The notes under the pieces were generated by a model that saw only the letters and a list, made by a program, of their open reading frames with translations, was not told the DNA's origin and searched no databases. A stretch of DNA of 64,000 nucleotides, taken from the NCBI GenBank assembly GCA_964584495.1, contig CAZPAH010000003.1:7148-71147 (forward strand), read 5' to 3'. Positions 3,712 to 54,700 of this stretch are shown here, one piece after another. Origin of the DNA: an uncultured bacterium. Lineage in GTDB: Bacteria > Krumholzibacteriota > Krumholzibacteriia > Krumholzibacteriales > Krumholzibacteriaceae. Both the position numbers and the translations under genes were made by a program. Position 1 is the first letter of the stretch. Every line of letters begins with the position of its first letter.

Positions 3712-3844
3712 GGATCCTTCCTAACGTATCTCGCCGCGCGCCCGGCCGAGTAATGATTTGAATTTCCCGTATCGATGTGATAAAATCATCCTCGAAATCA
3801 AGGGACAAAATTTAACACTCCAACAATTCACAGGAGGTAGCGCC

Positions 3845-8970: not shown

Positions 8971-8989
8971 TAGCCGATCGCAATAGGAT

Positions 8990-13518: not shown

Positions 13519-13561
13519 TCGCCGCGTAGGCGGCCCAAGAAAGGGGAGAAGGAAAAATCTC

Positions 13562-14008: not shown

Positions 14009-14030
14009 CAGAGCCGGCGGATGGTGCGAT

Positions 14031-14939: not shown

Positions 14940-14942
14940 ATC

Positions 14943-17617: not shown

Positions 17618-17730
17618 CTTATTGGGGAGGGGTAACTAAAGTCACCAATCATAGGGATATAATGAATAGTGCCGTAACCGATTGCAAAAGCGGCTAATCT
17701 TGGAGCCCAAAAAAGGAGAAATCCTCGGAC

Positions 17731-20250
17731 ATGGATATTACCAGCTATTCGCATGATTCCAGAACGGTTATCAAGAACGCCCAGGAGATAGCCTCTTCCT
17801 ACAGGCATGCCGAGATCGACGTGGAGCACCTGCTGATGGCGATCGTCCGCCACGAAGGGACCGAGGTGGAATCGATCCTTCACCAGATGGGTAAATCCCC
17901 GTCGTTCGTCGAGTCGATGGTCGATATCTACCTGAAGGATCAGCCCGCTAAGTCGACGGGAAGGGAGAAGGTGCCGATCTCACCGGCGGTCCAGACGGTG
18001 CTGAACAACGCCCTCGACGAGAAGGCGAAGCTCTACGATCCGCTGGTGGAGCCGGAGCATATCTTCATATCGATATTCGATCCCCGCTCGGCCCTCTCGG
18101 GCTACGTGAGGGACAAGGTAGAGATAACGAGGGAAGATATATACCGCGCCATAGCGGAGATGAAGGCGGTCGAGGAGATAGCCTCCACTCCCGGCGAGAA
18201 GGGCGAAAAGGCGGCGGCCGCGGGGGAATCACCGGAGAAGATCGCGAGGACGCTCAGGTACACCAACGACATGACCGATCAGGCGGCCGGCGGAAAATTC
18301 GATCCTATGATCGGACGCGAGGACGAGCTGCAGCAGACGATCCAGATTCTGCTTAGGCGGCGCAAGAACTCGCCAGTGCTTGTCGGCGGCGCAGGAGTCG
18401 GAAAATCGGCCATAGTGGAAGGGTTCGCCCAGGCCGTCATCGACAAGAGGGTGCCGAAGGTGCTCCAGGATGTCAAGGTGCTGGAAGTCGATATGGGCGC
18501 GATCATAGCCGGCGCCAAGTACAAGGGGGAGTTCGAGGAACGCTTCAAGGCGCTGATCGGCGATGTCGTCAAGGGGGCCGGCAAGGTCATCCTCTTTATC
18601 GACGAGATTCACACGATATGCGGAGCCGGTTCCGGCGGCGGGATGGACGCTGCGAACCTTCTCAAGCCGGCCCTCGCCCGCGGGCAGCTCAGACTGATAG
18701 GAGCCACTACGGAGGAAGAGTACACGAAGTACCTGGAAAAGGACAAGGCGCTCGTGCGCCGTTTTGAGAAGGTTAAGATCGAGCAGCCGGTTTTCGAGGA
18801 GGCCGTCACGATCGTCAGGGGCGTGGCGGACAGGTACGAGACGCATCACAAGGTCAAGTTCGACGAGGAGGCCAAGATCACCTCGGTGAAGCTGGCGCAG
18901 AGGTACCTCTCCGAGAGGAACCTTCCCGATATAGCCCTCGATATAATCGACGAGGCCGCGTCGGAATTTTCCGTCAAGCAGGAGCTTGCCGGCGAGAAGA
19001 TAAAGTCGCTCACCAAGCATTTCGAGGATATCGATAAATTGATCGGCGGAAAGGGCGAGGGGCTCGGCGAGACGTACGACGCTCTCACGAAGGACCTCGA
19101 CACGCTCCAGAAGTACTGGGGGCACAGGCTCGACAGGGAATACGAGCAGAGCCTCTCCTTCGACAAGATAAAGAAGGAGAATCTACCCGATATCATGGCG
19201 AAGAAGAAGGAGCTGTTCGAAGATTTGAAGGGTGTCGTGGAGAAGCTGGAGCCGGTCATATTCGACAGCGACATCGGCGCCGTGATCGCCCGGAGAACGG
19301 GGATCCCCGTGTCGAAGATGATGACGGCCGAGAAGGACCGGCTGATCAACATGGAGGAGTTCCTGGGCCGCAAGATCATCGGCCAGGAAAACGCGATCAA
19401 GGCGGTATGCAACGCCGTCAGGAAGTCGAGGGCCGGGCTTAAGCTGCCGTACCGCCCCGTGGGCTCGTTTCTGTTTCTCGGGCCGACGGGAACCGGCAAG
19501 ACCTATCTTCCGAAGCTCTTGGCCGACTTCCTCTTCGACGATAAGAACGCGATCGTCCGGATGGATATGTCGGAATTCATGGAGACTCATTCGGTCGCCA
19601 AGATGATCGGTGCGCCGCCGGGGTATGTCGGGTACGAGGCGGGGGGGCTTCTGACCGAGGCTGTTCGCAAGAAGCCTTTTTCGATAGTGCTGCTGGACGA
19701 GGTGGAGAAGGCGCATCCGGACGTATTCAATATTCTGCTTCAGCTCCTCGACGACGGCCGCTTGACCGACGGACAGGGACGCACCGTCGATTTCTCCAAC
19801 ACGATAGTGGTATTGACTTCGAACTATGCCGCTGATAAGATTCTCGAAGCAGATCGCGAGGGCAGGGAACCGGACATGGAAGAGATACGCTCGTTCCTGT
19901 TCGGGAAATTCAGGCCGGAGCTCCTGAACCGTCTCAACGAGATCATAGTTTTTCATCCATTTTCGCAGGAGCAGGTCGAGAAGATCGCCGCGCTCGAGTT
20001 CAAGAATCTCTGCGCCCTTCTGGAGGATCTCAACATCGAGGCGTCCCTCTCCGACGAGGCGACCAAGAAGCTCGCCAGGGAGGGGTACACGGTGGAGCTG
20101 GGTGCAAGGCCGATCCAGAGGATAATCGAGAAGCAGATTATCAACAAGCTGTCGGTGGAGATCATCACGGGCGAGGTAAAGCCGGGCGACGAGGTGAAGA
20201 TCGACATCAAGGACGATGATTACGTGTTTACCGTGGTAGAAAATAAATAG
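17731..20250 (+). CDS. clpV: T6SS AAA+ ATPase ClpV (TssH)
   Basis: Clp N-domain, then two AAA modules: Walker [10 protein letters not shown] in D1 and GPTGTGKT in D2, a sensor/arginine-finger region, and the ClpB-like [13 protein letters not shown] motif. Its position directly upstream of tssB, tssC and hcp supports the call. AAGGAG Shine-Dalgarno is present. Confidence 0.85.
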
Positions 20251-20277
20251 GATGAAGCGTTTAAAAAGGAGGAATTG

Positions 20278-20718
20278 ATGGCAAAGTTCATACTGGGAGC
20301 CACGGAACGGGTCAAGAAAGACGACTCGATTCCGGTCGAGCTTCTTCCATCGAACAAGTTGTTGTACGTGGCCAAGCTCAACAACGATGAGGACAGCGAA
20401 CCGGACCCGGTGCGTTGCAACAATCTGAAGGAGGTTTTCGATAAATTCCGTCCTTCATTCGAATGCGAGCTGGAATCGGCCGAAGGAGAGCCTATCAACG
20501 CGGATTTCCATATAAAGGCGATGAAGGACTTCACGCCGAAGGAGCTTATCGAGAACAACGATTACCTTTCGACGACCTACTACAGCAAGGAGATCCTTGC
20601 CGATCTCGACAAGCAGCTCAAGAAGAATAACGCACTAAAGAAGACTTTGAAGGACAAGGACAAGAAGGAAGCTCTTCTTAAGGCGGCGCAGTATTACATA
20701 GAACTTCTAACCGAATAG
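20278..20718 (+). CDS. tssB: T6SS contractile sheath small subunit TssB
   Basis: A ~147-aa acidic/lysine-rich protein lying between clpV and the large sheath gene, preceded by an AAGGAGG Shine-Dalgarno. Size and position match TssB. Sequence-level identity with known TssB was not verified by eye. Confidence 0.55.
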   Translation: MAKFILGATERVKKDDSIPVELLPSNKLLYVAKLNNDEDSEPDPVRCNNLKEVFDKFRPSFECELESAEGEPINADFHIKAMKDFTPKELIENNDYLSTTYYSKEILADLDKQLKKNNALKKTLKDKDKKEALLKAAQYYIELLTE

Positions 20719-20736
20719 AAGAGTGAGGTGATATAA

Positions 20737-22164
20737 ATGGGCGACGAAGAAAAGGAATTGCAGCCTCAGGCGCAGGAAGCGGCGAAGGAAAAGCAGGCCG
20801 CGGCGCCGGGCGAAAAGATCTCCGACGACGAGTTCGCCGAGATCTTGAGCGAATCGTTCGGGAAGTTCGACGATCTGGCCAAATTGCTTCCTTCATTCAA
20901 GACTGCCGACGGCGACCTCGTCCGGGGCGTCGAGTGGCTCGATCCCAAGAAAGACTTCCAGAGAAAGGAATTTCTCTCCAAGCCGAATTTCGCCAAGCAG
21001 AGAAAGCTTCTCGCGGAGAGGCTGAAGATATGGCGTGAGGCGCTGACCGGGGCGGACGATCCCGACCAGATCCGCAAGGGCCTGAACGAGAAGATGACCA
21101 AGCTCGAGGCTAATCTCGACAAGAACATGAAGCGCGTTCTGCGGGCGAGCCGCGATATGGAAACGGCCTACAGGGCGATAGACAAGTTCTTCGCCAACGC
21201 GCAGCTGGAGCCGGACGAGAAGGTCAACGCCTGGTTCGCCAACGTCAGCCCCGACCAGCTGATGGATCCCGACGACAAGGAAAAATTCGAGCAGCTCGCC
21301 AAGGCGGTCTCCGATCTTTATCGCGAATGGTCGATCAAGGACTGTTTCTCGATGGCCGTCGTGCCCGGCTGGGTGGGATCGGTGGAGAATATCGACACCC
21401 TCGCGCGCCAGCTCGGCCTGCCGAACAAGCTGCATATCATGACCGACCTGCCGAACTTCGAGAAGTTCGACGAGGTCATGGATATGCTGGAGGACCCCGC
21501 ATACGCGGGGCTGGCGGGGATCGACGACTTCAAGCAGTATATGTCGGTGTTCGCCAATTACGTACAGGCGAGGGAAGCCAACCAGTACGAGGACGAAGAC
21601 ATGTGGATTCCGCCCTCGGCGGTGGTGGCGGGAAAGCTGTACCAGGGGGACTCGACCACCGGCATGCAGCAGCCGTCGGCCGGCTTCAAGTACGGCAAGA
21701 TCGCCGAATCGAAGTACATCAAGTTCAGGGCCAACCAGCCCGATGCGAGCAAGATCAACGAAAAAGGCGTCAACACCATGGTCAACTTCGAGGGTTCCGT
21801 GGTGGCGATGGGGTCTTCCACGCTATCGACCAAGGAGACATTCAATATTTACTCCATCCGCAGGACCTACGATTACGTCTACAAGACGCTGCGCAACTAC
21901 CTCAACAAGCAGACCTTCTCTGTGATCGACCAGAAGTTCATTGACGCCCTCAGGCGGGATATAGACAAGTTCATGAAGGCTATATCTGGGGGCGACAATA
22001 TTCTGGAGGATTACAAGATAGAGATTTTCGCGGACGAGGAGATGCGCAAGAGACAGGAGGTTGATATCAAGGTCGCCCTTAATCCGAAATATCCCGCGCG
22101 GACGTTCAACATAGAGTTCGCCGCATGGAATGAGGATAACCAGATCAACGTGAAAGACAAGTAA
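20737..22164 (+). CDS. tssC: T6SS contractile sheath large subunit TssC
   Basis: A 475-aa protein immediately after tssB and before hcp, with the size and position typical of TssC (VipB). The call rests mainly on synteny. Confidence 0.55.
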   Translation: MGDEEKELQPQAQEAAKEKQAAAPGEKISDDEFAEILSESFGKFDDLAKLLPSFKTADGDLVRGVEWLDPKKDFQRKEFLSKPNFAKQRKLLAERLKIWREALTGADDPDQIRKGLNEKMTKLEANLDKNMKRVLRASRDMETAYRAIDKFFANAQLEPDEKVNAWFANVSPDQLMDPDDKEKFEQLAKAVSDLYREWSIKDCFSMAVVPGWVGSVENIDTLARQLGLPNKLHIMTDLPNFEKFDEVMDMLEDPAYAGLAGIDDFKQYMSVFANYVQAREANQYEDEDMWIPPSAVVAGKLYQGDSTTGMQQPSAGFKYGKIAESKYIKFRANQPDASKINEKGVNTMVNFEGSVVAMGSSTLSTKETFNIYSIRRTYDYVYKTLRNYLNKQTFSVIDQKFIDALRRDIDKFMKAISGGDNILEDYKIEIFADEEMRKRQEVDIKVALNPKYPARTFNIEFAAWNEDNQINVKDK

Positions 22165-22208
22165 GTACAAACCGCCTGTTCGCAGGCGCAGGAAAGGAGA
22201 ACGGGAAG

Positions 22209-22613
22209 ATGGCAAGAAGACCAATCCTTGAGATCGATGGTGTCGCGTACAAGAACGTGTATGAAGTTTCGTACAGGCTCTACACCGCCAAGGATGAGAC
22301 GGGCCGCCCCTCGGACCGCGCCCACGCCGGTGTAATCAAGATTAAGAGGGAATCGGACGAGACCTGCGATATAGCCAGGTGGGCGATGGATTCCTCCAAG
22401 CCGAACTGGAAAAACGGCAAGGTGATGTTCAAGAATCCCGATGACGCGACGATGAAGGAGCTTGCCTGGGAGAACGGGTTCATCACGGCGTACGCCGAGA
22501 GCGTTCCCCATATCAAGAACAATCCCGACGAGCAGATGTGGGAAGAGTTCGAGATCTCCTGCCAGAAGCTTACGATAAGCGACGCCGAGATCGACAACCT
22601 CTGGGAAGAGTAA
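22209..22613 (+). CDS. hcp: T6SS tube protein Hcp (TssD), short Bacteroidetes/T6SS-iii-like form
   Basis: 134 aa. The sequence GRPSDRAHAGVIKIKRESDE...GKVMFKN...AYAESV shows the beta-sandwich pattern of short Hcp/TssD. It is preceded by a strong Shine-Dalgarno (AGGAGAA) and followed by a small hairpin before vgrG. Confidence 0.6.
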   Translation: MARRPILEIDGVAYKNVYEVSYRLYTAKDETGRPSDRAHAGVIKIKRESDETCDIARWAMDSSKPNWKNGKVMFKNPDDATMKELAWENGFITAYAESVPHIKNNPDEQMWEEFEISCQKLTISDAEIDNLWEE

Positions 22614-22732
22614 ATCCTGGGCTTGGCAACCGTACCCGGTTGCGGGCCGCGTGAAAATAAACCGATGTCTCGTCAGGCCGCGATCCGGCAAGACCGGGTC
22701 CGGCCCGGCGGACGTCCGGTCGGGAGTGAAAA

Positions 22733-24520
22733 ATGGCCGTACTGGAAACTCCGGCCGAATGCCTGATTCGGGTCGATAACCAGGAAATCAAGTTCAATAT
22801 ATCGGGCATCCAGCTGGATCAGTTCATCGACACCCACCATCACCTTGTCCTCCGCATCCAGCAGGTAGGGAAGAAGGATGCGGGCAAGGATTTCGACGAT
22901 CCCGGCAAATACTCGGGATTTCTCGGGCAGAGCATCGCCCTTACGATCAATCCGACCGGGGGGGTGGTGGACCCTTCCCGCGCTCTGGAATTCATAGGCG
23001 TGATTACCGATGTGCAGCTCGAGAACAGCATCGATGGACTGAACACCGTGTTGATCCACGCCGCTTCGTCGACGATCAGCATGGATGGAGCGGCGAAGAA
23101 CGCCCACTATTACGACAAGAGCGCCAGCGATATCATAGGCGCGATCGTGGGCAACTACCCGATAACGGTTGGAAAGATCGAGTCTACGAAGGACAAGTTC
23201 AAGTTCGACACGCAGTACCGAGAAAGCGACTTCGATTACATCATGCGCCTCGCCCGGGGGGCCGGAATGTTCGCCTACTACACGGGGCGCGATTTCAACC
23301 TGACCCCCGCCAACAGCAGCAACACCGTCGACCTCGTGTGGCGCGAGAATCTAGGGGCGTTCAGGATGGGACTCGGCACGGCGCCTGTCGAGTTCAAGTC
23401 GGAAGTATACAATTACGAGCAGAAGAAGACCTATTCGCAGGACAGCCAGTCGATATCCCAGCAGGCGTCTCTCTCGGAGCAATCGAAGGTCTCGCCCCAG
23501 GCATCGAAGAAGATATTCAAGGAGTCGAGCTTCTCGTCCTCCCCCAAGACGGTCGAGGACGCCAAGGCGCTCGACAAGACGCTCGAAAACGAACGCCGCA
23601 GGGCGATGGGCTCCATGATCCGCTGCCGGGGGCAGTCGATAGTCCCGGCCGTGACGATCGGCTCCTGCATAAAAATCGAGGGGATGGACAAGCTCGACGG
23701 GCAGTACTGGGTCAAGAGCGTCCGCCATATATTCGATGACAGCGGGAAGTACCATAACACGTTCGTCTGCACGCCCCTCGACATAGCGTATCCCGGAAAG
23801 AGGGAGACGGGCAAGGACCTCGAGACGGGCGAGGAATCCATCAAGGCGACCGCCAGCATAGAGAACGTGGAGGAGGCGAAGAGGAAACCGGTTCTGGGGC
23901 TTCACGTGGCGAGGGTGGTCGATCTGAACGATCCGGAGAGCCTCGGGCGGATCAAGATCAGCTACCCGTGGCTCGATTCCCAGCAGACCGCCTGGGTGCG
24001 GCTAATGGTCCCCCACGCCGGCAAAGACCGCGGCTGGTACGCCCTCCCCGAGCTCGATGACGAGGTGCTGATCGGCTACGAGCACGGCAATACGGATCAC
24101 CCGGTCGTCCTGGGGTGCCTGTACAACAAGGAAAATTCCCCGATGCAGGAGGCCGTGTCGAGCGATAACGACATCAAGATGTTCATGACCCGCAGCGGCA
24201 ACAAGATCGTTTTCAACGACAAGGACGGCTCGGAGCAGATCCTGATATCCCAGAAGGAAGGCAAGAACCAGATCGTCCTTGATATATCGGGACCGTCGAT
24301 ATCGATCACGACGGAGGGCGATATCTCGATCAAGGGAAATAACCTCGCTGTCGAGGCGCAGGAGGGGATCACGATGAAGGCGTCCTCCGACGTGAAGATC
24401 GAAGGGGCCAATATAGAGATAAAGGCCCAGGGAAACATCACCTCGGAAGCGGCCGCCAACAACGATATCAAGGGCAACGCCCAGGTCAACGTAAAGGGCG
24501 GTATGGTAAACCTTAATTAA
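22733..24520 (+). CDS. vgrG: T6SS spike VgrG (TssI), gp27/gp5-like with C-terminal beta-helix
   Basis: A gp27-like N-terminal region, then the gp5/baseplate-V-like OB region (WVRLMVPHAGKDRGWYALPELDDEVLIGYEHGNTDHPVVLG). The C-terminus has repetitive ISIKGNNLAVEAQEGITMKASSDVKIEGANIEIKAQGNI beta-helix repeats. Confidence 0.8.
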   Translation: MAVLETPAECLIRVDNQEIKFNISGIQLDQFIDTHHHLVLRIQQVGKKDAGKDFDDPGKYSGFLGQSIALTINPTGGVVDPSRALEFIGVITDVQLENSIDGLNTVLIHAASSTISMDGAAKNAHYYDKSASDIIGAIVGNYPITVGKIESTKDKFKFDTQYRESDFDYIMRLARGAGMFAYYTGRDFNLTPANSSNTVDLVWRENLGAFRMGLGTAPVEFKSEVYNYEQKKTYSQDSQSISQQASLSEQSKVSPQASKKIFKESSFSSSPKTVEDAKALDKTLENERRRAMGSMIRCRGQSIVPAVTIGSCIKIEGMDKLDGQYWVKSVRHIFDDSGKYHNTFVCTPLDIAYPGKRETGKDLETGEESIKATASIENVEEAKRKPVLGLHVARVVDLNDPESLGRIKISYPWLDSQQTAWVRLMVPHAGKDRGWYALPELDDEVLIGYEHGNTDHPVVLGCLYNKENSPMQEAVSSDNDIKMFMTRSGNKIVFNDKDGSEQILISQKEGKNQIVLDISGPSISITTEGDISIKGNNLAVEAQEGITMKASSDVKIEGANIEIKAQGNITSEAAANNDIKGNAQVNVKGGMVNLN

Positions 24521-39436: not shown

Positions 39437-40780
39437 TCAGAACCGCATAGTGAAGACGGTCTCGACGCCCGGCTTCGACCGGACGGTCAGGTCGCCCCTG
39501 TGAAGCCTCATGATCTGCCTCGAGAGGCTCAGTCCTATGCCCGAGCCGTCCTTCTTCGTGCTGTAGAAGGGGATGAAGACCTTCTCGGCCGCCTCCTCGA
39601 CGATACCCGGTCCGTTATCGGCTATCCTTATCACCAGGCGGCTTCTCTCGTCGATGGCCGCCTCGATCCTGATCGATCCGTCAGGCTTCGATTCGAGCGC
39701 CTGGATCGAGTTGAGGACGAGGTTTATCAGCACCTGCTCGATCAGCCTGGGATCGGCCGTCATCTCGAGGTTCGAGGGCTCTATCGAGGTGGAGATGGAT
39801 ATATCGGTCTCCTGCGACTGCGCCGAGACGAGCTTGATGATCCTCTCGAAGAGCTCCGAGACGGGGAAGGTGCTGTATTCCGGCTTCGGTATATGGGTAA
39901 GGTCGCGGTAGGTGTCGACGAACTGGAGGAGGTTGTGGCTCCGCTTCTGTATCGTCTGGAGGGCGCTCCTGATGTCGCCCGCATCGACCGAGGCGGTCTT
40001 GCCGGCGGTTACGCCGGGAAGGAGCAGCTCCTCGACGCTCGAGGCGAGGGAGGCTATCGGCGTCAGGGAGTTCTTTATCTCGTGCGTCAGCACCCTTATC
40101 AGGTTCTGCCAGGCGTCCATCTCCTTCTCGTTCAGCTCGCTGCTTATGTTCTGGATCGAAACGAGGGTCAGCACCCTGCTCCTCTGCCTCAGCTCGGTGG
40201 TGTAGATCGAAAGCTGCATCATCTCGCTGTTGACGGAAACCGTCACGAGGTCGCGCTGCCCGGGAACCGCTCCCCTCAGCCTCTCTAGGAGAACGGGGCT
40301 GATCGCGCCCAGCCCCGAGATATTCTTCAGGGATGGAATGTTGAACAGCCTCTTGACCGCGTTGTTCAGGAGGGCGACCTCTCCGTCGGCGGTGAAGGCT
40401 ATCATCCCTATGCCGACGTGCTGCACGACCGTCTGGAGGTAACGGAAATTCTCCTCCTTCTCGAGGCTTATCTCCCTGAACCGGTTGACGACGGAGGTGA
40501 ATGCCTCGTTGAGCTCGTCGAACGAGATCCCCTTTATTCCGCTGGTGAAGCTCTGGGAGAAATCGGAGTACTCGATCGATTCGAGAAACCTGGTAAGGTT
40601 CCTGTTCGTCTTTTCGCTGAACCTGACGAGGGAGACGATCTGGAAGAGGGCGGCCAGCCCGAAGAATATCGATGTCGCCGGCATCGAGGAGGATATCAGG
40701 AGATAGAGGAAAATGAATATAGTCGCGCTGAGGAGCAGCACGCGGACTGTCATCGCTATGCGGAATCTTCTAAAGGCCAT
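39437..40780 (-). CDS. Sensor histidine kinase (two N-terminal TM helices, PAS-like, HisKA, HATPase_c)
   Basis: The H-box THEIKNSLTPI, N box and G boxes (IRIADNGPGI, GSGIGLSL) are present. Its start overlaps the sigma-54 regulator stop. Confidence 0.75.
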   Translation of the reverse strand: MAFRRFRIAMTVRVLLLSATIFIFLYLLISSSMPATSIFFGLAALFQIVSLVRFSEKTNRNLTRFLESIEYSDFSQSFTSGIKGISFDELNEAFTSVVNRFREISLEKEENFRYLQTVVQHVGIGMIAFTADGEVALLNNAVKRLFNIPSLKNISGLGAISPVLLERLRGAVPGQRDLVTVSVNSEMMQLSIYTTELRQRSRVLTLVSIQNISSELNEKEMDAWQNLIRVLTHEIKNSLTPIASLASSVEELLLPGVTAGKTASVDAGDIRSALQTIQKRSHNLLQFVDTYRDLTHIPKPEYSTFPVSELFERIIKLVSAQSQETDISISTSIEPSNLEMTADPRLIEQVLINLVLNSIQALESKPDGSIRIEAAIDERSRLVIRIADNGPGIVEEAAEKVFIPFYSTKKDGSGIGLSLSRQIMRLHRGDLTVRSKPGVETVFTMRF

Positions 40781-42152
40781 ATCGTTCCAGCCTGCGGTAC
40801 AGGGCCGCGCGGCTCAGTCCGAGGCTCCGCGCCGCGAGCGATATATTGCCGTTGAACCTCGAGAGGGCCTTGCGTATCACGGTTTTTTCCATCTCCTCGA
40901 GGTTGAAGCTGTCGGCGTCGGCGCCGCCCTCGCTTTTCGGGGTATGGAAGGGGAAATCGTCCGGTTGGAGGGTCTGCGAGGAGGTCATTATCACGGCCCG
41001 CTCGACCGAGTGCTGGAGCTCCCTCACGTTTCCCGGCCAGTGGTACCTCTTGAGCTTGTTCAGCGCGGCGGCGCTGATCCGCGAGATCTCCTTCCTGTAC
41101 TTCTTCCTGTAGATGCCGAGGAAATACTCGGTGAGAAGGGGAAGATCCTCGATCCGCTCCCTGAGGGGGGGAAGGGGGATCTCCACCGTGTTTATCCTGT
41201 AGAGAAGGTCCTGCCTGAACAGGCCCGATTCGACCATCGAGGGAAGGGAGATGTTGGTCGCGCAGATAAGCCGTATATCGACCGTCTTCGCCCTGTTCGA
41301 TCCGACCCTCGTCACCTGCCGGCTCTGGAGCGCCGAGAGGATCTTCGCCTGAAGGTCGAGTGGGAGGTTGCCGATCTCGTCGAGAAAAAGGGTCCCGCCC
41401 GAGGCGATCTCGAAACGCCCGGGACGGTTCTCCTTCGCGTCGGTGAAGGCCCCCTTCACGTGGCCGAACAGCTCGCTCTCGAAAAGCGTTCCGCTGAGCG
41501 CCCCCATGTCGACCCTCACGAAAGGCTCGGCGGCCCGCGGGGAGCCGCGGTGCACGGCCCTCGCCACGATCTCCTTGCCGGTGCCGTTCTCTCCCGTTAT
41601 AAGAACATTGGCGTCGGTGACGGCGACCTTGTCGATGATGGCGAATACCCTGCGGATCGACTCCGACTCCCCTATGAAATCGTGAAAAGGGAGGTCCATG
41701 TCGCGGTTGAGCTGTTTCTGGCGCTCCCTGAGCCCTTCGGTCTCCTTCTTCGATCGGCTGAGGGCCATCGCCGCCGATACGGTTGCGAGAAGCTTCTCGT
41801 TCTTCCAGGGCTTCACGATGAAATCGGAGGCCCCTTCCTTGATCGACCTAACGGCGGTCTCGTAGTCGGCGAAAGCGGTTATGAGAATCACGCTCGCAGA
41901 TGGTGATATGGAGAGTATGCGGTTGAGCCAGAAAAACCCTTCCTGGCCGCTCGTGACATCCTCGGTGAAGTTCATATCGAGGAGTATCACGTCGAAGGAC
42001 TCGTTCTTTAGCAGGTCGGGGAGAGCCTCGGGCCTCGTCTCGGTTTGAACGAGGGCGAAATGCTGCTTGAGAAAGAGGCGGGCGGCGAAGAGAACATCCT
42101 CGTCGTCGTCTACTATCAGTATCTTGCCGTACTTTACTGCCATCATATTCAT
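40770..42152 (-). CDS. Sigma-54-dependent response regulator (NtrC family enhancer-binding protein)
   Basis: The receiver domain (ILIVDDDEDV...D...LLDMNF) is followed by an AAA+ sigma54 activator core with Walker A GENGTGKE, a GAFTDA variant of GAFTGA, ESELFGH and an arginine finger. A C-terminal Fis-type HTH (LAARSLGLSRAALYRRL) closes the protein. Confidence 0.8.
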   Translation of the reverse strand: MNMMAVKYGKILIVDDDEDVLFAARLFLKQHFALVQTETRPEALPDLLKNESFDVILLDMNFTEDVTSGQEGFFWLNRILSISPSASVILITAFADYETAVRSIKEGASDFIVKPWKNEKLLATVSAAMALSRSKKETEGLRERQKQLNRDMDLPFHDFIGESESIRRVFAIIDKVAVTDANVLITGENGTGKEIVARAVHRGSPRAAEPFVRVDMGALSGTLFESELFGHVKGAFTDAKENRPGRFEIASGGTLFLDEIGNLPLDLQAKILSALQSRQVTRVGSNRAKTVDIRLICATNISLPSMVESGLFRQDLLYRINTVEIPLPPLRERIEDLPLLTEYFLGIYRKKYRKEISRISAAALNKLKRYHWPGNVRELQHSVERAVIMTSSQTLQPDDFPFHTPKSEGGADADSFNLEEMEKTVIRKALSRFNGNISLAARSLGLSRAALYRRLERYGL

Positions 42153-42607: not shown

Positions 42608-42624
42608 TGGCACGGGGATTGATC
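42608..42624 (+). promoter_or_regulatory. Candidate sigma-54 (-24/-12) promoter for the FtsX/HlyD/ABC operon
   Basis: TGGCAC-GGGGA-TTGAT at 42608-42624, about 40 nt upstream of the ATG at 42665. The -24 GG element is perfect, but the -12 element is TTGA instead of TTGC, so the match is imperfect. Confidence 0.2.
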
Positions 42625-47901: not shown

Positions 47902-47935
47902 TTGACAATTATTGGCGATTTGGCAATATTGCCAA
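47902..47935 (+). promoter_or_regulatory. Candidate promoter (TTGACA-17-AATATT) overlapping a perfect 16-bp palindrome TTGGCAATATTGCCAA upstream of the arsR-family gene
   Basis: TTGACA at 47902-47907. The palindrome at 47920-47935 overlaps the -10 region, and an extra direct TTGGC half-site lies at 47912-47916. It is about 125 bp upstream of the ArsR-family ORF, which is the typical autoregulatory operator arrangement for ArsR/SmtB repressors. Confidence 0.3.
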
Positions 47936-48059: not shown

Positions 48060-48455
48060 ATGGATAATAAAACATACAGGCATTTCGAGGCGAGGGCCGC
48101 GATGATGAAGGCGCTGGCCCATCCGACGAGGCTGTTCATCGTGGACGAGCTTTCGAAAGGGGAGAGATGCGTCCGCAATCTCACCTCGATGATAGGGGAC
48201 GACACTTCGACCGTCTCTAAGCATCTTTCCGTCCTGAAGAACGCGGGGATAGTCGGGACGCGCCGCGAGGGAGCATGGATCTACTATTCGCTGAAGGCCC
48301 CCTGCGTCCTGAATTTTTTCACGTGCATAGAAAACGTAATCGAATCGTCGATTGAGGAAAAGGGTTCAAGTGTCCGGGGGAAGGTCTCGATAGCCACGGG
48401 GAGCACTTCTACCGCCCGTGCAAAGGGCTCGACCGCCCCGGGAAAGCGCAGGTAG
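48060..48455 (+). CDS. ArsR/SmtB-family transcriptional regulator
   Basis: ALAHPTRLFIVDELSKGERCVRNLTSMIGDDTSTVSKHLSVLKNAGIV is the ArsR-type wHTH, with a Cys in the alpha3 region. Confidence 0.75.
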   Translation: MDNKTYRHFEARAAMMKALAHPTRLFIVDELSKGERCVRNLTSMIGDDTSTVSKHLSVLKNAGIVGTRREGAWIYYSLKAPCVLNFFTCIENVIESSIEEKGSSVRGKVSIATGSTSTARAKGSTAPGKRR

Positions 48456-48457
48456 GG

Positions 48458-49780
48458 ATGCCCACGAAAAAGGACTACAGGGCGATCGCAGTCGTCACGG
48501 CGGTTTTTCTCGCCTCCTTCTATATCCCGGTCGAGGCGCTTCGGCCGGCCGGAAGGCTCGCGAACGCCGCCTGGGAATCTCTCTACATGCTGCGGGCGTA
48601 CGCGAGGGAGCATGTCATCCTGTGCCTCGTGCCCGCCTTTTTCATCGCCGGGGCCGTATCGATATTCGTCGGCAAGGAATCTATCATGAGATACCTAGGC
48701 CCCGGGGCGAACAAGATCGTCGCCTACGGCGTAGCCTCGGTATCCGGCTCGATACTGGCCGTCTGCTCCTGCACGATCCTTCCCCTCTTCGCCGGCATAT
48801 ACAGGATGGGAGCGGGGCTCGGTCCCGCATCGGCATTTCTCTATTCGGGGCCCGCGATAAACGTCCTGGCGATAGTGCTGACCACGAGGGTTCTAGGCAT
48901 CGAGCTCGGCGCGGCGAGGGCGCTCGGCGCAATCGTCTTCAGCGTCGTGATCGGGCTTCTCATGCATCTGATATTCAGGAAAGAGGAGATGGCAAAGAAG
49001 GCGGCGCTCCCACAGGTCCCGATCGACGAGGGGGGCCGCTCCCTGCTGAAGAACGGCCTCTACTTCGCCTCGATGACGGCGATACTCGTCTTCGCCAACT
49101 GGGGCAGGCCGGCCGGAGAGAGCGGCCTGTGGTATTTCATATTCAAATCGAAATGGATTGTCACGGCCTTCGCGGCGGCAGCCTTCGCGCTGATGCTCAC
49201 TGCATGGTTCGGCGTGAAACGGCTGCATATATTCCTTGCTGCGCTCCCGCCGGTCGTTCTCGCCGCGGCCTTTCCCGGGACCCCGGTCCTCGCTTTCGCC
49301 TCGGGAGTGGTGTCGATCTCGATCCTCCTTGTGAGAACGGGGGGCGAGGCGGGCGAGTGGTTCGATTCCTCGTGGGGATTCGCCAGGCAGATTCTGCCGC
49401 TTCTCTTCGCCGGGGTGATAATCGCCGGGGCGCTTCTGGGCCGCCCGGAGCACGAAGGGCTTATCCCCTCGTCCTGGATCAGCGGCGCCGTGGGAGGAAA
49501 CTCCCTTTGGGCCAACCTGTTCGCATCGGTGGCGGGGGCCTTCATGTATTTCGCCACCCTTACCGAGGTTCCCATACTGCAGGGGCTTATCGGCGCGGGG
49601 ATGGGGAAGGGTCCGGCCCTGGCCCTGCTCCTGGCGGGCCCGGCGCTCAGCCTGCCGAACATGCTCGTGATTAGGAGCGTCATCGGGACTAAAAAGACGG
49701 TCGTCTACGTCGCCCTCGTTATAGCGATGGCGACGGTCAGCGGATTGATATACGGATTTTTCTTCGGAGTGGAGGTTTGA
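48458..49780 (+). CDS. Polytopic permease (COG0701/DUF318-type predicted permease commonly paired with ArsR and thioredoxin-like genes)
   Basis: There are at least 10 predicted TM helices. It lies 3 nt after arsR and is followed by a small CxxC thioredoxin-fold gene, which is the characteristic three-gene arrangement. Confidence 0.6.
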   Translation: MPTKKDYRAIAVVTAVFLASFYIPVEALRPAGRLANAAWESLYMLRAYAREHVILCLVPAFFIAGAVSIFVGKESIMRYLGPGANKIVAYGVASVSGSILAVCSCTILPLFAGIYRMGAGLGPASAFLYSGPAINVLAIVLTTRVLGIELGAARALGAIVFSVVIGLLMHLIFRKEEMAKKAALPQVPIDEGGRSLLKNGLYFASMTAILVFANWGRPAGESGLWYFIFKSKWIVTAFAAAAFALMLTAWFGVKRLHIFLAALPPVVLAAAFPGTPVLAFASGVVSISILLVRTGGEAGEWFDSSWGFARQILPLLFAGVIIAGALLGRPEHEGLIPSSWISGAVGGNSLWANLFASVAGAFMYFATLTEVPILQGLIGAGMGKGPALALLLAGPALSLPNMLVIRSVIGTKKTVVYVALVIAMATVSGLIYGFFFGVEV

Positions 49781-49781
49781 G

Positions 49782-50018
49782 ATGAAGGAGATCAAGGTGC
49801 TGGGCACCGGTTGTCCGAAATGCGGGAAGCTCAAGAAAAATGTCGAGGAGGCCCTTGCGGGCCTGGAGATCGAGTACAGCCTGGAAAAGGTCGAGGATAT
49901 CCAGGAGATCGTCTCCTTCGGCGTTATGATGACCCCCGCGCTCGTCGTCGACGGCGAGGTGAAGTTTTCGGGGAAGGTCCCCGGCATCGAAGAGCTGAGA
50001 TCGATACTGACCTCCTGA
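49782..50018 (+). CDS. Small thioredoxin-fold redox-active disulfide protein (CPKC motif)
   Basis: 78 aa. MKEIKVLGTGCPKCGKL...MMTPALVVDGEV matches 'redox-active disulfide protein 2'-type small thioredoxin-like proteins. Confidence 0.7.
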   Translation: MKEIKVLGTGCPKCGKLKKNVEEALAGLEIEYSLEKVEDIQEIVSFGVMMTPALVVDGEVKFSGKVPGIEELRSILTS

Positions 50019-50030
50019 CAAAGCAGGAAA

Positions 50031-50091
50031 GGCGCCTGCTCCCCGGGCCGACTCTCATGGCGGGGGAGGTGGAATGTCGTTCCCAGCGAGG
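50031..50091 (+). repeat. Copy A of a 61-nt conserved intergenic element (about 90% identical to 51435..51495)
   Basis: GGCGCCTGCTCCCCGGGCCGACTCTCATGGCGGGGGAGGTGGAATGTCGTTCCCAGCGAGG contains the inverted repeat CTCCCCG...CGGGGGAG. It lies about 55 nt upstream of the 50149 ORF. Confidence 0.5.
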
Positions 50092-50148
50092 CGCGGGACG
50101 GTTCCTTACAGGCGGTCTTAAATGCCGTTTCCCGGGAAAGGATGACAT

Positions 50149-50655
50149 ATGAATAACAGAATGATAATCACGCTGGTTCTCGGCCTCTTCGTCGCCTCAG
50201 CCGTCATGGTGCTGATATTCGACATGCGCGATGAAGGGAAAACGGGGAGCGGGACGGCGTTCGAATCCGGAGATGACGAGACGGCCGTTCTGTCGGGCGG
50301 CCCCGGCGGACCTGCCGACAGGGTAATAGCCTATTATTTCTACGGGAACAAGAGATGCGCTACCTGCAGAAATATTGAAGCCTATACGAGGGAGGCGCTA
50401 CAGGAGAGTTTTGCCGGTGAACTGGAGTCCGGAGAGCTCGAGATGCAGTTCGTCAACGTCGATCTGCCGTCGAACGAGCATTTCATAGAGGATTTCGATC
50501 TTCTCACCAAATCGGTGGTGCTCGTAAGGATCTCCGGAGGCAGGCGGGTCGAATGGAAAAACCTCGATAGGATATGGGATCTGGCGGGCACGAAGAAAGA
50601 GTTCATCGAATATATAGGCGGCGAAACGGAAAGATTTCTGGGAAGAGGCGTATGA
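50149..50655 (+). CDS. Membrane-anchored CxxC protein (thioredoxin-like?)
   Basis: An N-terminal TM helix (IITLVLGLFVASAVMVLIF) is followed by YYFYGNKRCATCRN, a CxxC motif. It is adjacent to a CcdA-like gene. The family was not recognised. Confidence 0.4.
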   Translation: MNNRMIITLVLGLFVASAVMVLIFDMRDEGKTGSGTAFESGDDETAVLSGGPGGPADRVIAYYFYGNKRCATCRNIEAYTREALQESFAGELESGELEMQFVNVDLPSNEHFIEDFDLLTKSVVLVRISGGRRVEWKNLDRIWDLAGTKKEFIEYIGGETERFLGRGV

Positions 50656-50728
50656 GAATGATCCCCGGCGGCGCGAATGGGACTGTATTTGAGGATCTGC
50701 GGGTGAAGGTTAGTCCGGGAGGGGGGGC

Positions 50729-51418
50729 ATGAGCGGATTCTTCTCGGGAGCTGCGCTGGCCCTGTGGCTCGGCGTACTTACCTCTATCAGCCCATGTCCG
50801 CTCGCGACCAATATCGCGGCGGTATCGTTCGTCGGCAGGCATGTTGGAAGTCCCCGCCGGGTGCTGGCGGCGGGATTGATTTATACGGCCGGACGCACGC
50901 TTGTCTACCTGGTGCTGGCCGGCCTTCTCGTGACGAGCCTGCTGGAGGCGCCCTACGTATCGCATCTGCTGCAGAAAGATATGAACAGGATTCTCGGTCC
51001 GGTCCTGGTGGTGGCCGGGATGTTCCTGCTCGACCTGATCCGTATAGCTCCCTTGGGCGGTGGGCGGAAAGGAAAATTGCAGGAGCGGGTCGAAAGGTCG
51101 GGGTTCTGGGGAGCGGCCCTGCTGGGAATCGTGTTCGCTCTATCGTTCTGTCCCGTATCGGCGGCCCTCTTCTTCGGGTCGCTGGTTCCACTGGCCGTAA
51201 GATCGGAATCGGCGGTTCTCTATCCGCTTCTCTACGGAGTGGGAACGGCGCTTCCGGTCGTTCTTTTCGCCGGTCTGATCTCGGCGGGGGCGCGGCATGT
51301 GGGGCTCGTGTTCGACAGGATCAAGCTCGTGGAGATCTGGGCCAGGAGGGCGACCGGCATCTTTCTCGCGGGTCTCGGCATCTACTTCTCGCTCAAGTAC
51401 ATATTCCAGGTTATATAA
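50729..51418 (+). CDS. CcdA/DsbD-like thiol-disulfide transporter (cytochrome c biogenesis transmembrane protein family)
   Basis: Six predicted TM helices carry the two signature cysteines in TM1 (SISPCPLATN) and TM4 (LSFCPVSAALF). Confidence 0.6.
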   Translation: MSGFFSGAALALWLGVLTSISPCPLATNIAAVSFVGRHVGSPRRVLAAGLIYTAGRTLVYLVLAGLLVTSLLEAPYVSHLLQKDMNRILGPVLVVAGMFLLDLIRIAPLGGGRKGKLQERVERSGFWGAALLGIVFALSFCPVSAALFFGSLVPLAVRSESAVLYPLLYGVGTALPVVLFAGLISAGARHVGLVFDRIKLVEIWARRATGIFLAGLGIYFSLKYIFQVI

Positions 51419-51434
51419 TCAGGCGTTGATCGAA

Positions 51435-51495
51435 GGTGCCTGCTCCCCGGGCCGACTCTCACGGCGGGGGAGGCGGAACGTCGTTCCACGCGAGG
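51435..51495 (+). repeat. Copy B of the 61-nt conserved intergenic element
   Basis: GGTGCCTGCTCCCCGGGCCGACTCTCACGGCGGGGGAGGCGGAACGTCGTTCCACGCGAGG differs from copy A by six positions, mostly C/T transitions. It lies in the leader about 270 nt upstream of the large Ig-repeat protein. Confidence 0.5.
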
Positions 51496-51765
51496 TTAGG
51501 GGGACGGCTGAAAAATTTTCCCGGTCACGGGAAAAAGGGTACCTAAAAAAGGTGGCCGCCGGGAACCTTCCCCCGCCGCATGCGCCCTCCCCTATCATCC
51601 CAAAAGACTATTGATTTTCAGCTTATAGGCCCGGTCTCCGGGCCTTATCCGCATGGTTCCCCCGTGGCATATGACTTGCCGTCCGCACTGTTGAAAGTAC
51701 CGCGTCGACTCCGGATTGTTGTGCGCGTCGGGCGGCCGGGCCGGAAGATTCATATTTTCGAAGAG

Positions 51766-54700
51766 GTGGATATCGTGTTTCAGGCAAATCGATACAAACA
51801 TTACGTGCTACTTTTCCTGGCGGCATTAATAGGCACGGCCCTGCTCGCGCCGGCCGGAGCCTTCTCCCAGGTCGCCTGCCCCTACAGGCAGGTGCAGGTT
51901 CTTCTTCCGGGCGAGAGCGCAGCCCCCGGAACCGATTCGGGAAAGACGGGTACACCATTGACTCAGGTGGCCGGGATACCGTTCGAGATAAAGGTCCGTG
52001 TCTGCGACGGGTCGTGGAACACGGTGACCTCGGTCGATCATGCATTCAGGATAACCTCGACCGACGAGACGGCCTCCCTGCCGCCGGCATCGCCGCTGAT
52101 ATTCGGAGAGCTTACTCTCGATGTGACGCTCAACGCGGCGGGGCTCTTCACCTTCACAGCGACCGACCTGAGCGATCACGAGCACATCTCGGGAACATCC
52201 TCGCAGGTGACGGTGGTCTATGGTGTCGGCGAGCTGGACCGCTTCGAATTCTCATACATAGATGCGGATCAGAGGGCCGGGCAACCGGTGCAGGTCACAA
52301 TTGAGGCGGTCGACGGGAACGGCAGCCTGGTAGGCACCTTCTCGGGCACAGCCGGCCTGACGCAGAGCACATCGTTCGGCGCCGGGAGGATCTTGCCGCA
52401 GGAAATCGGTTTCGAGGGCGGATCGTGGACGGGGTATGTGACCCTCTACAGGGCCGACGAGACCGAAGGTGAATGCTACGGCGGAAACGTGACGATCTCG
52501 GCGGCCCTCGAGGGCGGCGGACCGGCCGGGGAAAGCAACTGCTTCACCGTACACCCGGGCGATTTCGCGAGGCTGCAGGTAATCGTTCCCGGACAGGAAC
52601 CGGCGCCCGGCACGATAGCCGGCATCACGGGTTCGCCCGCGGTCCAGTCGACCGGTATGAGCTTTGCCGCGCAGGTCTACGGAACCGACGAGTTCTGGAA
52701 CCGTGTCGACGGCGCGGACGAAATCTCACTGACATCGAACGATCAGGCCGCAGCCATTTCAGGACCTGCCGCGATGACGGATGGGCAGGCGTCGTTCGAT
52801 ATCGCCTTCGCCACTGCGGGTATCAAGACACTGACCGCACTGGATGTGACCGACGGCGGGATAGAGGGGATGACGAGCGAGCCGATACAGGTCATCTCGA
52901 GCGAACCGGTATTTGTAATCGAGCCCCTTCCATCGCCGCTGACGGCGGGGGAGCCGGTGACCGTTACGATAAGGGTCACAGACTCTAGGGGCAATCCCAT
53001 AGAGAACTACAACGGCCACGCCCTTCTCGTGGCGGAAACGGGCCCGGCGACGATCACGCCCGAATCGATCAGATTTGACGGAGGGTCGTGGAGTGGGGAT
53101 ATGACATTCTTCTGCGCGGGCGGCGAGATCTCATTCTCGTGCGTCGACTTCGCGGCTCCCCCGAACTACGGCACCAGCATTCCGGTGACGGTTCTTCCAG
53201 GTGACTACGCCGGGCTACAGGTCCTGCTGCCGGGCGAGATCCCCCTCGGGGGAACCGTTTCGGGCAAAGAGGGCTCTCCGGCCGATCAAGAGGCGGGAAG
53301 ACCGTTCCAGGTTACGGTAAGGGCGGTCGATAGCTGGTGGAACATGGTGCCCGAGGCCGATACGGGAATTTCGCTCGTATCGACAGACGCCTACGCTCTG
53401 ATCCCCGCCGGGACGGTTCTCGGCGGCGGGCAGCTCACCGTTCCCGTGACCCTCTTCAGGGCGGGAAGGCACAGCTTCGAGGCGAAGGAAGAGGGCTCCG
53501 AGGACGGGGAGGGAAGCGTATCGGGCCTCTTAGACGTGGTTCCGGGACCGTACGCAAGGGTTATAATGCTGGCGCCCGGCGAGGAGCTTATTCCCGGCTC
53601 CGAAGAGGGAAAGGTGGGAACTCCGCTCGATCAGACGGTCGGCTACTCTTTCAGGCTGATAGTGCAGGCGACCGACTGGTGGTGGAACCCGGTGACGGGG
53701 GTAAGCGACGGGATAAGGCTCACATCGACCGATCCGCTGGCCGAGATTCCCGAGATCGCATTCCTGGCCGACGGCCGCGCGGAGTTCGACGTGAGGCTCT
53801 CCACCGGCGGGTACCAGCTTCTTACAGCCGAGAATACCGACAATACATCGATCGGCAACACGGTGTCGCAGGTAAGGGCGATAAACAGCGGATTTCATAT
53901 CGAAGCTGCGGTTCACCCGGAAAAGGTCATAGCGGGGGAGACGTTCTACGTGACGGTAAAGGTGACGAACAACGCCGGTGCCGTCATGCAGGAGGTCAAC
54001 TCCTTCGCGAATATAGAGGTCCGGAACGCGGTGAAGGGGGAAGCGGGAGAAGGCACGCTGCTCAATACACGCTTCCAATTCCTTCAGGGCGAGCGGACGT
54101 TGAGCCAGACATACACGAAGGCCGAATCGATCGTGCTGCTCATATCGGACGAGGGAGGTAACGATCCCGGCCTGACGAACGCGATCACGATAGAGCCGGG
54201 GCCGCCCTCGGCTATCGAGGCGGTGAGCGATCCGCCGTGGGTGGGCGGAAGGAAGACGGCCACGATCAGCGCGAGCGTCATAGACGGTTTCGGAAACGGC
54301 GTGCCGGGCCAGCCGGTCGTCTTCGAGCTCGAGAGCGGGCTTGGAACCATCACGCCGATCGAGGAGGTCACGGACCGGCTAGGGGTGGCAAGGGCCCTCT
54401 TCCGGGCGGCCTACGACCCGGAGACAGGAACAGTGAGGGTCTATTCGAACTCGTTCACGACGATCCTCGAGATCGAGACGGCGCTTGTCGATCCCTCCCT
54501 TCCCGGAGGAACCGTGACAAATTACCCGAATCCGTTCCATCCGAACGAGAACGCCACGACAATCGCCTACAAGCTCTCCGACGACGCGATCGTCTCGATG
54601 AGGATATTCACGCTCGACGGCAGGCTCGTCCTGAGGAAGAAGTACGGCGCGGGGAGCGACGGCGGCTCGGCCGGCCTTAACGAGATCCTCTGGGACGGCC

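Follow-up and report, generated by a model that had tools for sequence, protein, structure and literature searches.

A 63-nt non-coding repeat bracketing the arsFG genes of an uncultured bacterium may be a young, lineage-private miniature element

The spacers on either side of a two-gene pair in a 64,000-nucleotide stretch of DNA from an uncultured bacterium (hereafter, the window) contain near-identical copies of a short sequence, which raises the question of what kind of element this is and how it came to be present twice. The original prediction had described a 61-nt element with copies about 90% identical, and several interpretations had been offered for it. The repeat search confirmed that the two-copy repeat is real and non-random. 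The unit measured 63 nt, reaching 2 nt further to the left than predicted, and its copies were located on the same strand with a spacing of 1404 nt (Table 1). Between copy 1 and copy 2, 57 of the 63 bases matched (90%; 0.905). The differences comprised a T in copy 1 and a C in copy 2 at unit positions 5, 30, 42 and 47, all four transitions thus pointing one way, and CA in copy 1 versus AC in copy 2 at positions 56-57. When each half of the unit was searched in the window with up to 3 mismatches, only the two copies were recovered, and 100 shuffles produced no chance matches to the halves. Using nhmmer and a covariance model (filters off), both copies scored 64-66 and 95-97 bits, and a third copy was not found in the 64 kb (next best match, E = 0.12-1.9). 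Both copies were intergenic, non-coding and sharp-ended, and their G+C content (70-73%) was above the mean of the other spacers (56%). A coding element was ruled out, as the open frames across the two copies were not alike and therefore encoded no shared peptide.

The bracketed gene pair closes an operon of the arsenic-resistance type with the order arsR, ArsP-type permease, arsE-like thioredoxin, arsF and arsG. The pair previously labelled "CxxC/CcdA" was indeed flanked by the two copies, and its members were reassigned to the arsF and arsG families. Copy 1 begins 10 nt past the stop codon of the thioredoxin gene, which is full length against its family profile (positions 1-75 of 75), and its last base lies 57 nt upstream of the arsF start codon (ATG, 50149). 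Copy 2 likewise directly follows a full-length gene, beginning 14 nt past the arsG stop codon, and ends 279 nt before the GTG at 51775; the distances to the neighbouring genes had been given correctly. The candidate operon promoter overlaps a perfect 16-nt palindrome (TTGGCAATATTGCCAA, 47920-47935), which is likely the ArsR operator. We infer that a single polycistronic transcript, starting from an ArsR-controlled promoter near 47902-47930, carries both copies in the sense orientation. The operator-like palindrome and the promoter were unrelated to the 63-nt element, and the possibility that the element itself is an ArsR operator was rejected on this basis. Copy 2 had been placed in the leader of the Ig/T9SS gene. 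This assignment is not obvious, since an exact match to a sigma-54-type -24/-12 promoter was located downstream of the copy (51665-51679), and copy 2 is therefore more aptly regarded as 3'-flanking sequence of arsG. A gene for a sigma-54 activator was also present in the window.

Table 1. Coordinates of the repeat copies, their internal motifs and the surrounding ars genes within the window
Feature	Coordinates	Strand	Remarks
Candidate operon promoter, TTGACA-17-AATATT	47902..47935	+	overlaps 16-nt palindrome
ArsR/SmtB-family regulator gene	48060..48455	+	
ArsP_1-type permease gene	48458..49780	+	
MTH895/ArsE-family thioredoxin-like gene	49782..50018	+	stop 50016-50018
Copy 1 of the 63-nt element	50029..50091	+	thioredoxin gene-arsF spacer
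Hairpin core, copy 1	50039..50068	+	CTCCCC(G)...(C)GGGGGAG; inner GCCG/TGGC helix, one G-U
Palindrome GGAATGTCGTTCC, copy 1	50071..50083	+	imperfect as DNA; G-U as + strand RNA
GGGACGG, 3 nt after copy 1	50095..50101	+	can pair with GUCGUUCC of the element
ArsF-family gene	50149..50655	+	earlier "membrane CxxC protein"
ArsG-family transporter gene, DsbD_2 fold	50729..51418	+	earlier "CcdA"; stop 51416-51418
Copy 2 of the 63-nt element	51433..51495	+	3' of arsG; palindromes perfect Watson-Crick
Hairpin core, copy 2	51443..51472	+	inner helix GCCG/CGGC
Palindrome GGAACGTCGTTCC, copy 2	51475..51487	+	perfect 5-3-5
GGGACGG, 5 nt after copy 2	51501..51507	+	8-bp helix with GUCGUUCC in predicted fold

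Each copy contains the inverted repeat CTCCCCG...CGGGGGAG, as had been predicted, with a stem of 6-7 pairs and one bulged G in place of the claimed 7-8 bp; the loop can form an inner GCCG/YGGC helix. The thioredoxin and arsG stop codons lie 21-25 nt ahead of the stems. The palindrome GGAAYGTCGTTCC was found in both copies 3' of the hairpin, and a CGTC sequence (TGTC in copy 1) was located 7 nt 3' of the main hairpin. The predicted energies of the 37-nt stretches around the hairpins were about -17 kcal/mol for copy 1 and about -21 kcal/mol for copy 2 (51440-51476, -20.6 kcal/mol, z = -1.6). Fold z-scores ranged from +1.5 to -1.6 against dinucleotide shuffles, a stability no better than chance. 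The terminator scan of the + strand did not call the element as an intrinsic terminator, its hairpins being followed by GGYGGAAYG and no U-tract. On the - strand, the scan called only a short hairpin (50044-50026), which overlapped the 5' end of copy 1 and had no counterpart at copy 2. The further loose similarity reported downstream of both copies turned out to be marginal: an end-free global alignment of the flanks gave p about 0.01, whereas a local alignment gave p = 0.10. The flanks share GGGACGG at a nearly equal offset (p = 0.004, post hoc), and the instance after copy 1 looks native to its site, as the aligned place in the closest relative reads GGGATGA.

The comparison with related ars loci indicated when the element arose. 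In the closest relative (L001), whose ArsF is 86% identical at the amino acid and 84.6% at the nucleotide level, the thioredoxin-arsF spacer measured 61 nt and was homologous to window positions 50103-50146 (0 of 2000 shuffles scored as high). This homologous arsF leader did not contain the 63-nt element. The HMM and covariance model searches also failed to detect it at six further ars loci (L016-L021), which encode more distant ArsF or ArsG homologues (46-58% identity for those fetched with ArsF) and mostly have short spacers. Thus, by parsimony, the element appears to be derived in the lineage of the window. Between the window and L001, identity was 0.67-0.71 for third codon positions and 0.73 for the leader; the copies, at 0.905, are more alike than such neutral sites are between the lineages, which suggests that the copying was recent and, if the element evolves neutrally, younger than the lineage split. 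In the search for close relatives that reach across the spacer downstream of arsG, ArsG itself matched nothing at more than 68% identity, the top non-self match (L019) being an internally duplicated, distant arsG. A chimeric query composed of the ArsG C-terminus and the N-terminus of the Ig protein retrieved no close fragments. Other small junction insertions were present at the same ars locus, which makes spacer expansion look like a local habit of this lineage; the 77-nt insertion between arsF and arsG showed no relation to the element (p = 0.35-0.94).

No related sequence was revealed by exact-core scans, which covered 185,579 species genomes as well as metagenomes from JGI and viral contigs, or by BLAST searches of plasmids and phages. 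The stem-arm pattern matched 10 times in species genomes, within genes of Micromonospora, Plantactinospora or Anaeromyxobacter; these matches represented a conserved coding segment (LLPGP..EAGE) and were unrelated. Four near-identical matches to a 19-mer core in metagenome contigs were likewise unrelated, their flanks having no similarity to the element. Two viral scans with the element patterns gave 0 matches, and no match was obtained when the element was compared to plasmids and phages by BLAST.

The best explanation, to which we give about an even chance of being right, is that the element is not a conserved sensor or leader but a non-coding repeat of ~63 nt that is young, private to this lineage and copied into or between the spacers of the ars operon. 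Among the options of the original prediction, which was partly supported as a whole, the miniature repeat fitted best, given the sharp ends, the non-coding character and the absence from the orthologous spacer of L001. Such a unit might have spread in the manner of REPs, as a miniature repeat that carries a hairpin but has no terminal inverted repeats and makes no target duplication, or one spacer might have served as the template for a local duplication into the other. End-to-end complementarity of the copies was no better than that of shuffles (p = 0.24 and 0.35), no duplicated word was common to the flanks at the junctions, and a Pfam scan of about 40 ORFs of the window did not identify a transposase, RAYT or integrase. 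The placement of the copies is somewhat surprising under random dispersal, as the two bracket one gene pair and none was present in about 18 other spacers; the chance of such bracketing under random dispersal was about 0.2 by position and about 0.1 when orientation was included. Since the copies lie 10-14 nt past two stop codons in one putative transcript, a GC-rich RNA hairpin would follow two cistrons. The hairpin may act generically, in the manner of REP sequences, as a barrier to 3'-to-5' mRNA decay, or alternatively as a weak pause or termination point, and the arsR-permease-thioredoxin and arsFG segments might then accumulate to different levels. The proposed effect on the mRNA would imply no ligand or specific sensing; it is countered by the fact that the hairpin was no more stable than shuffled sequence and lacked a U-tract.

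The two copies might instead be the neutral remnant of one segmental duplication that comprised the element and the arsF leader, possibly with arsFG, and was followed by deletion, with no function or mobility involved. The copies are adjacent and directly oriented with exactly one gene pair between them, and the arsF/arsG junction of the locus also carries a duplication-type insertion. The end-free flank alignment and the shared GGGACGG, which looks native at the first site, point in the same direction, whereas the local flank alignment did not reach significance. The divergence was uneven, amounting to 10% in the core and roughly 45% in the putative duplicated leader, which is not predicted by a single neutral event. 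Moreover, the origin of the element would still have to be accounted for, since the relatives do not have it. We consider this explanation unlikely, if the most serious of the rivals to a copied miniature repeat.

A further alternative is selection on the RNA. The element could be a cis-acting RNA of the ars transcript that purifying selection maintains at both positions, acting in RNA processing or stability, in the control of translation, or as a motif bound by a protein. The 63-nt core is 90% identical and its flanks are at most weakly similar; conservation of the element so far above that of the downstream flanks could reflect selection on it. The copies share the orientation of the operon and the placement after stop codons, and the two substitutions in the stems can be accommodated on the + strand as G-U pairs, whereas the - strand would have A-C. 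Although their loops differ by an indel, each of the copies can also form a second helix, GUCGUUCC/GGGACGG(C/U). The earlier argument that a G-U versus G-C change indicates structural constraint carries little weight, because both changes are plain C/T transitions, a C-to-T change opposite G gives G-U automatically, and copy 1 has the T at all four transitions; two of two stem changes being compatible has p about 0.25 under neutrality. No base pair was altered on both sides between the copies (two sequences, with very little power to detect covariation), and the fold energies remained within shuffle expectation. The search of the whole window against Rfam 15 at gathering thresholds gave 0 matches, and at E values up to 10 nothing within 49500-52000 overlapped either copy. 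The riboswitch-like leader proposed originally thus received no positive support: no family was matched, the folds were ordinary, and the element was absent from the homologous arsF leader of L001 and from the six other ars loci. Taken together, a selected cis-acting RNA seems quite improbable. A more specific form would be an undescribed, narrowly distributed structured RNA, maintained by selection at two intercistronic or 3' positions of the ars operon and setting the expression of arsFG. Selection would then hold the unit at 90% identity while the co-duplicated leader decays, and the relative expression of arsFG might be set via, e.g., an RNA-binding protein or a site at which the transcript is processed or protected. 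To this form we assign a very low probability.

A DNA-level binding site for a protein, either a repressor of the ArsR family or a sigma-54 enhancer-binding protein that would use the element as its upstream activating sequence, is one of the least probable readings. Copy 2 has the perfect 13-nt palindrome GGAACGTCGTTCC in addition to a larger dyad and is located 170-230 nt upstream of the exact sigma-54-type match, in a window encoding a sigma-54 activator. However, a 5-3-5 palindrome is expected by chance in about 5% of 63-nt sequences, the palindromes of copy 1 are degraded at the DNA level by the T-for-C changes, and reading of the sequence downstream of copy 1 identified no convincing sigma-54 promoter. 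The likely ArsR operator at the operon promoter, TTGGCAATATTGCCAA, is unrelated to the element, and the element is missing from the relatives. The notion that the copies delimit an inserted or excisable arsFG module, as att- or attC-like boundaries of recombination or of a cassette, is suggested by direct repeats that enclose two genes and each follow an ORF, but it is extremely implausible, as the thioredoxin-arsF-arsG order is ancestral and occurs without the element in L001, L017, L018 and L020, the unit ends have no RYYYAAC/GTTRRRY core sites, and the ORFs scanned include no integrase. A tRNA or tmRNA fragment serving as an att site was ruled out, as ARAGORN found none in the window. A bacterial SECIS element was also ruled out: copy 1 follows a UGA codon, but the thioredoxin gene is full length, and copy 2 follows UAA.

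If the copied miniature repeat is the correct explanation, the element would add to the miniature intergenic repeats that are specific to a lineage, would be of interest only locally, and would show that spacers have recently expanded in an uncultured bacterium bearing T9SS and T6SS. It would possibly uncouple, in their expression, genes whose counterparts in relatives are closely packed or coupled in translation. The finding would gain weight if copies were dispersed over the genome as a family that has neither terminal inverted repeats nor a RAYT, because how REP-like repeats lacking a tag spread is, to our knowledge, not yet clear. The same would hold if the element turned out to be an RNA signal under selection in ars-type operons.

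When compared to known systems, the copies resemble integron attC sites in being similar imperfect-palindrome repeats located after ORFs in direct orientation, but they have no core sites, no integrase is encoded nearby, and the genes that they flank follow a conserved operon order. With the riboswitches and leaders of Rfam 15 the element shares its location in an untranslated region (5' or intercistronic) and the potential to form hairpins; it differs from them in matching no family, in the lack of conservation alongside the downstream gene among relatives and in the absence of covariation. As in MITEs (Correia/NEMIS, ERIC, RUP), the sequence is small, non-coding, located in spacers and present or absent between close relatives; unlike MITEs, it lacks terminal inverted repeats (p = 0.24-0.35) and target-site duplication and is shorter than most. 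The expected effect of REP sequences is that of a generic mRNA hairpin. The GTAG- and CGTC-tagged REP families have units of 20-40 bp, the CGTC families having 8-9 bp stems that start with A-T pairs and loops of 4-5 nt, and TGTC is listed as a variant of the CGTC tag (Di Nocera et al. 2013, PMC3733652). The unit described here is longer (63 nt), its stem and loop geometry does not fit the CGTC families, only two copies were found in the 64-kb window, whereas REPs typically exceed 100 per genome, and no RAYT-type transposase (IS200/IS605-type) was detected among the ~40 ORFs scanned. In line with REP sequences, it is a short extragenic unit rich in G+C whose imperfect palindrome can fold into a stem-loop; it lies inside an operon, just past stop codons and in the orientation of transcription, and has neither terminal inverted repeats nor target duplication.

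The repeat search of the window revealed a 63-nt element present in two copies on the same strand, 90% identical and offset by 1404 nt: copy 1 in the spacer between the thioredoxin-like gene and arsF, and copy 2 after arsG. The family holding them (D5) was the sole non-coding repeat family listed for the window. When either half of the unit was searched with up to three mismatches allowed, matches were obtained at these two copies only, and none of 100 dinucleotide-preserving shuffles matched the half-unit queries. A profile HMM of both copies (64–66 bits) and a covariance model with filtering disabled (95–97 bits) likewise recovered only the pair; neither model found a third copy in the 64-kb window, the next-best matches (E ≥ 0.12) lying within coding sequence. 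The two-copy repeat of the original prediction was thus confirmed, as were its hairpin and GGAAYGTCGTTCC palindrome. The six differences between the copies comprise four transitions (unit positions 5, 30, 42 and 47; copy 1 always has T where copy 2 has C) and a CA/AC swap (positions 56–57). The G+C content of the element is 70–73%, versus a mean of 56% for the other spacers of the window. Its ends are sharp: no relation is seen between the upstream flanks (p = 0.22), and the loose similarity previously noticed downstream is weak at best (local alignment p = 0.10; end-free global p ~0.01).

Features of the ars-type operon and of other parts of the window
Feature	Position	Strand	Remark
62-nt stretch, four diverged copies	4523–5079		period ~165 nt; inside 837-aa ORF 3758–6271
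Type VI secretion cluster	7822–24520		PAAR, ClpV-like AAA+, TssB/VipA, TssC, Hcp/TssD, VgrG
Sigma-54 activator gene	40770–42152	-
One-mismatch sigma-54-type site	42608–42622	+	43 nt ahead of MacB-type gene at 42665
Sigma-70-like promoter TTGACA-17-AATATT	47902–47930		overlaps 16-nt palindrome
Perfect 16-nt palindrome TTGGCAATATTGCCAA	47920–47935		overlaps sigma-70-like promoter
ArsR/SmtB regulator gene	48060–48455	+	tightly packed with next two genes
ArsP_1-type permease gene	48458–49780	+
MTH895/ArsE-family thioredoxin-like gene	49782–50018	+
Copy 1	50029–50091		starts 10 nt past thioredoxin stop codon
ArsF-family gene	50149–50655		NF040494, 107 bits (cutoff 60)
77-nt insertion at arsF/arsG junction	50641–50734		insert ~50650–50726
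ArsG-family transporter gene	50729–51418		NF040495, 274 bits (cutoff 200)
Copy 2	51433–51495		starts 14 nt past arsG stop codon
Hairpin AAAAATTTTCCCGGTCACGGGAAAAA	51511–51540		terminator-like on minus strand only
Hairpin AGGCCCGGTCTCCGGGCCT	51629–51647		just ahead of TGGCATATGACTTGC
Sigma-54-type -24/-12 exact match TGGCATATGACTTGC	51665–51679	+	96 nt before GTG 51775

The copies do flank a gene pair, and the pair originally labelled CxxC/CcdA belongs to the ArsF and ArsG families. The unit is non-coding, since the ORFs traversing the two copies use different frames and, compared with their family profiles, neither the thioredoxin nor ArsG is truncated. Copy 2 had been regarded as a leader of the large Ig/T9SS-type gene; it is better viewed as the 3' flank of arsG, because TGGCATATGACTTGC intervenes between it and the probable start of that gene. 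The 356-nt spacer downstream of arsG also contains two hairpins, AAAAATTTTCCCGGTCACGGGAAAAA and AGGCCCGGTCTCCGGGCCT, the latter of which gave a weak, spurious HgcE match in Rfam. Several large proteins of the organism bear T9SS-type C-terminal domains (FlgD_ig-like), and the 62-nt stretches are coding domain repeats in a secreted protein.

The element is clearly not a widespread motif. An exact pattern of both stem arms, searched against 185,579 species genomes, matched only an unrelated conserved coding segment, and a 19-nt core gave only unrelated matches in JGI metagenomes, with flanks unlike the element; these pattern scans demand exact cores, which diverged relatives would escape. Two viral-contig scans and BLAST against plasmids and phages returned no match. 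The window proteins are singletons in a 15-billion-protein collection, and just one close relative emerged, a 958-bp JGI contig (L001; ArsF identity 86% in protein, 84.6% in DNA). Its thioredoxin-arsF spacer measures 61 nt versus 130 nt in the window and aligns to the arsF-proximal part (50103–50146; none of 2000 shuffles scored as high). L001 lacks the element, and on its right side the gap stops where the repeat does. Six loci with more distant ArsF/ArsG homologues (46–58% identical where fetched by ArsF) contained no similar sequence by nhmmer or covariance model; where the thioredoxin gene and arsF are adjacent, the spacers between them are 12, 46 and 80 nt. Because L001 and the distant loci lack it, the element was, by parsimony, probably gained in the window's lineage. 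The copies are 90.5% identical, versus 67–71% (third codon positions) and 73% (leader) between the window and L001, so that, given neutral evolution of the element, the lineage split would be several times older than the copying.

The arsF/arsG junction differs from the closest relative by an insertion that is unrelated to the element and has a duplicated junction motif at its borders (GGGAAGAGGCGTATGAG / GGGAGGGGGGGCATGAG). Translational coupling of the two genes, itself likely, appears to have been broken in the window's lineage, since a 73-nt spacer replaces the overlap or abutment (-8 to +1 nt) of all seven relatives. One distant locus (L019, 1081–1370; JGI 3300035659 contig) has a 315-aa arsG homologue with an internal duplication of ~86 aa that raised its ArsG-search bit score; the duplication is genuine and in tandem, or else an artefact of assembly.

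Most likely, the element is a miniature repeat or duplication that arose recently and in this lineage alone, and any effect it has would be generic. Under a first rival reading, the copies would be the remnant of a neutral segmental duplication. Two co-oriented copies in 2 of ~20 spacers, with a single spacer between those two, have an estimated probability of ~0.1 under random dispersal; copying within the locus is thus no less likely than the copies belonging to a dispersed family. GGGACGG, found 3 nt past copy 1 and 5 nt past copy 2 (p = 0.004, post hoc), points the same way, though the detail itself is unexplained; it seems native at site 1, as L001 reads GGGATGA there. Copy 1 and its adjoining flank may have served as the template for copy 2; alternatively, the element may prefer such a target, or the motif may persist through pairing with GUCGUUCC in the element, a predicted 8-bp helix possible in both copies.

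The second rival, a selected cis-acting RNA, draws only on the core being conserved while the flanks decayed. The riboswitch-like reading was not supported: Rfam 15 gave no match in the window at gathering thresholds and none overlapping either copy at E up to 10. For the 63-nt units, 76–78-nt extended versions, hairpin cores and whole spacers, minimum free energies fell within the dinucleotide-shuffle range (z +1.5 to -1.6, either strand, RNA or DNA), and RNAalifold found no base pair altered on both sides. The palindromes are intact Watson-Crick in copy 2, and copy 1 has the four T-for-C changes; of the six differences, two lie within plus-strand helices and give G-U in copy 1. One such pair was formerly read as a signal of structural constraint, but the argument carries little weight because C-to-T opposite G always yields G-U; by our calculation, two of two compatible changes have p ~0.25 under neutrality. 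A DNA-binding site fares less well: the likely ArsR operator, predicted at TTGGCAATATTGCCAA in the operon promoter, does not resemble the element. Cassette boundaries are the weakest reading. No terminal inverted repeats (p = 0.24–0.35) or target-site duplications were found at the copies, and no transposase, RAYT or integrase among ~40 window ORFs scanned, which encode the type VI secretion cluster, MacB-type ABC transporters, kinases and TPR proteins.

The analysis demonstrated the repeat itself, where it sits, that relatives lack it and that it is young; its effect on RNA is proposed by analogy. Both copies are predicted to lie on the sense strand of a single ArsR-controlled polycistronic unit, where each would place a GC-rich hairpin in the transcript, starting 21–25 nt after a stop codon; folding of the surrounding 37-nt stretches gives ~-17 and -21 kcal/mol. 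Hairpins of REP elements hinder 3'-to-5' decay by exonucleases or lead to pausing. Should these hairpins act likewise, the arsR-permease-thioredoxin and arsFG segments could accumulate to differing extents.

The miniature-repeat option is favoured, and judged from two copies in 64 kb the element most resembles REP-like hairpin repeats in its architecture, being extragenic and imperfectly palindromic, free of inverted termini and duplication, and located after in-operon stop codons. Specific REP definitions fail: the unit is 63 nt versus 20–40 bp, and although a CGTC/TGTC string lies 3' of the hairpin, its geometry departs from that of the CGTC-tagged families, with 8–9 bp stems starting with A-T and 4–5 nt loops (PMC3733652). 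Among short intergenic repeats, a broad class, the element is a new yet ordinary instance.
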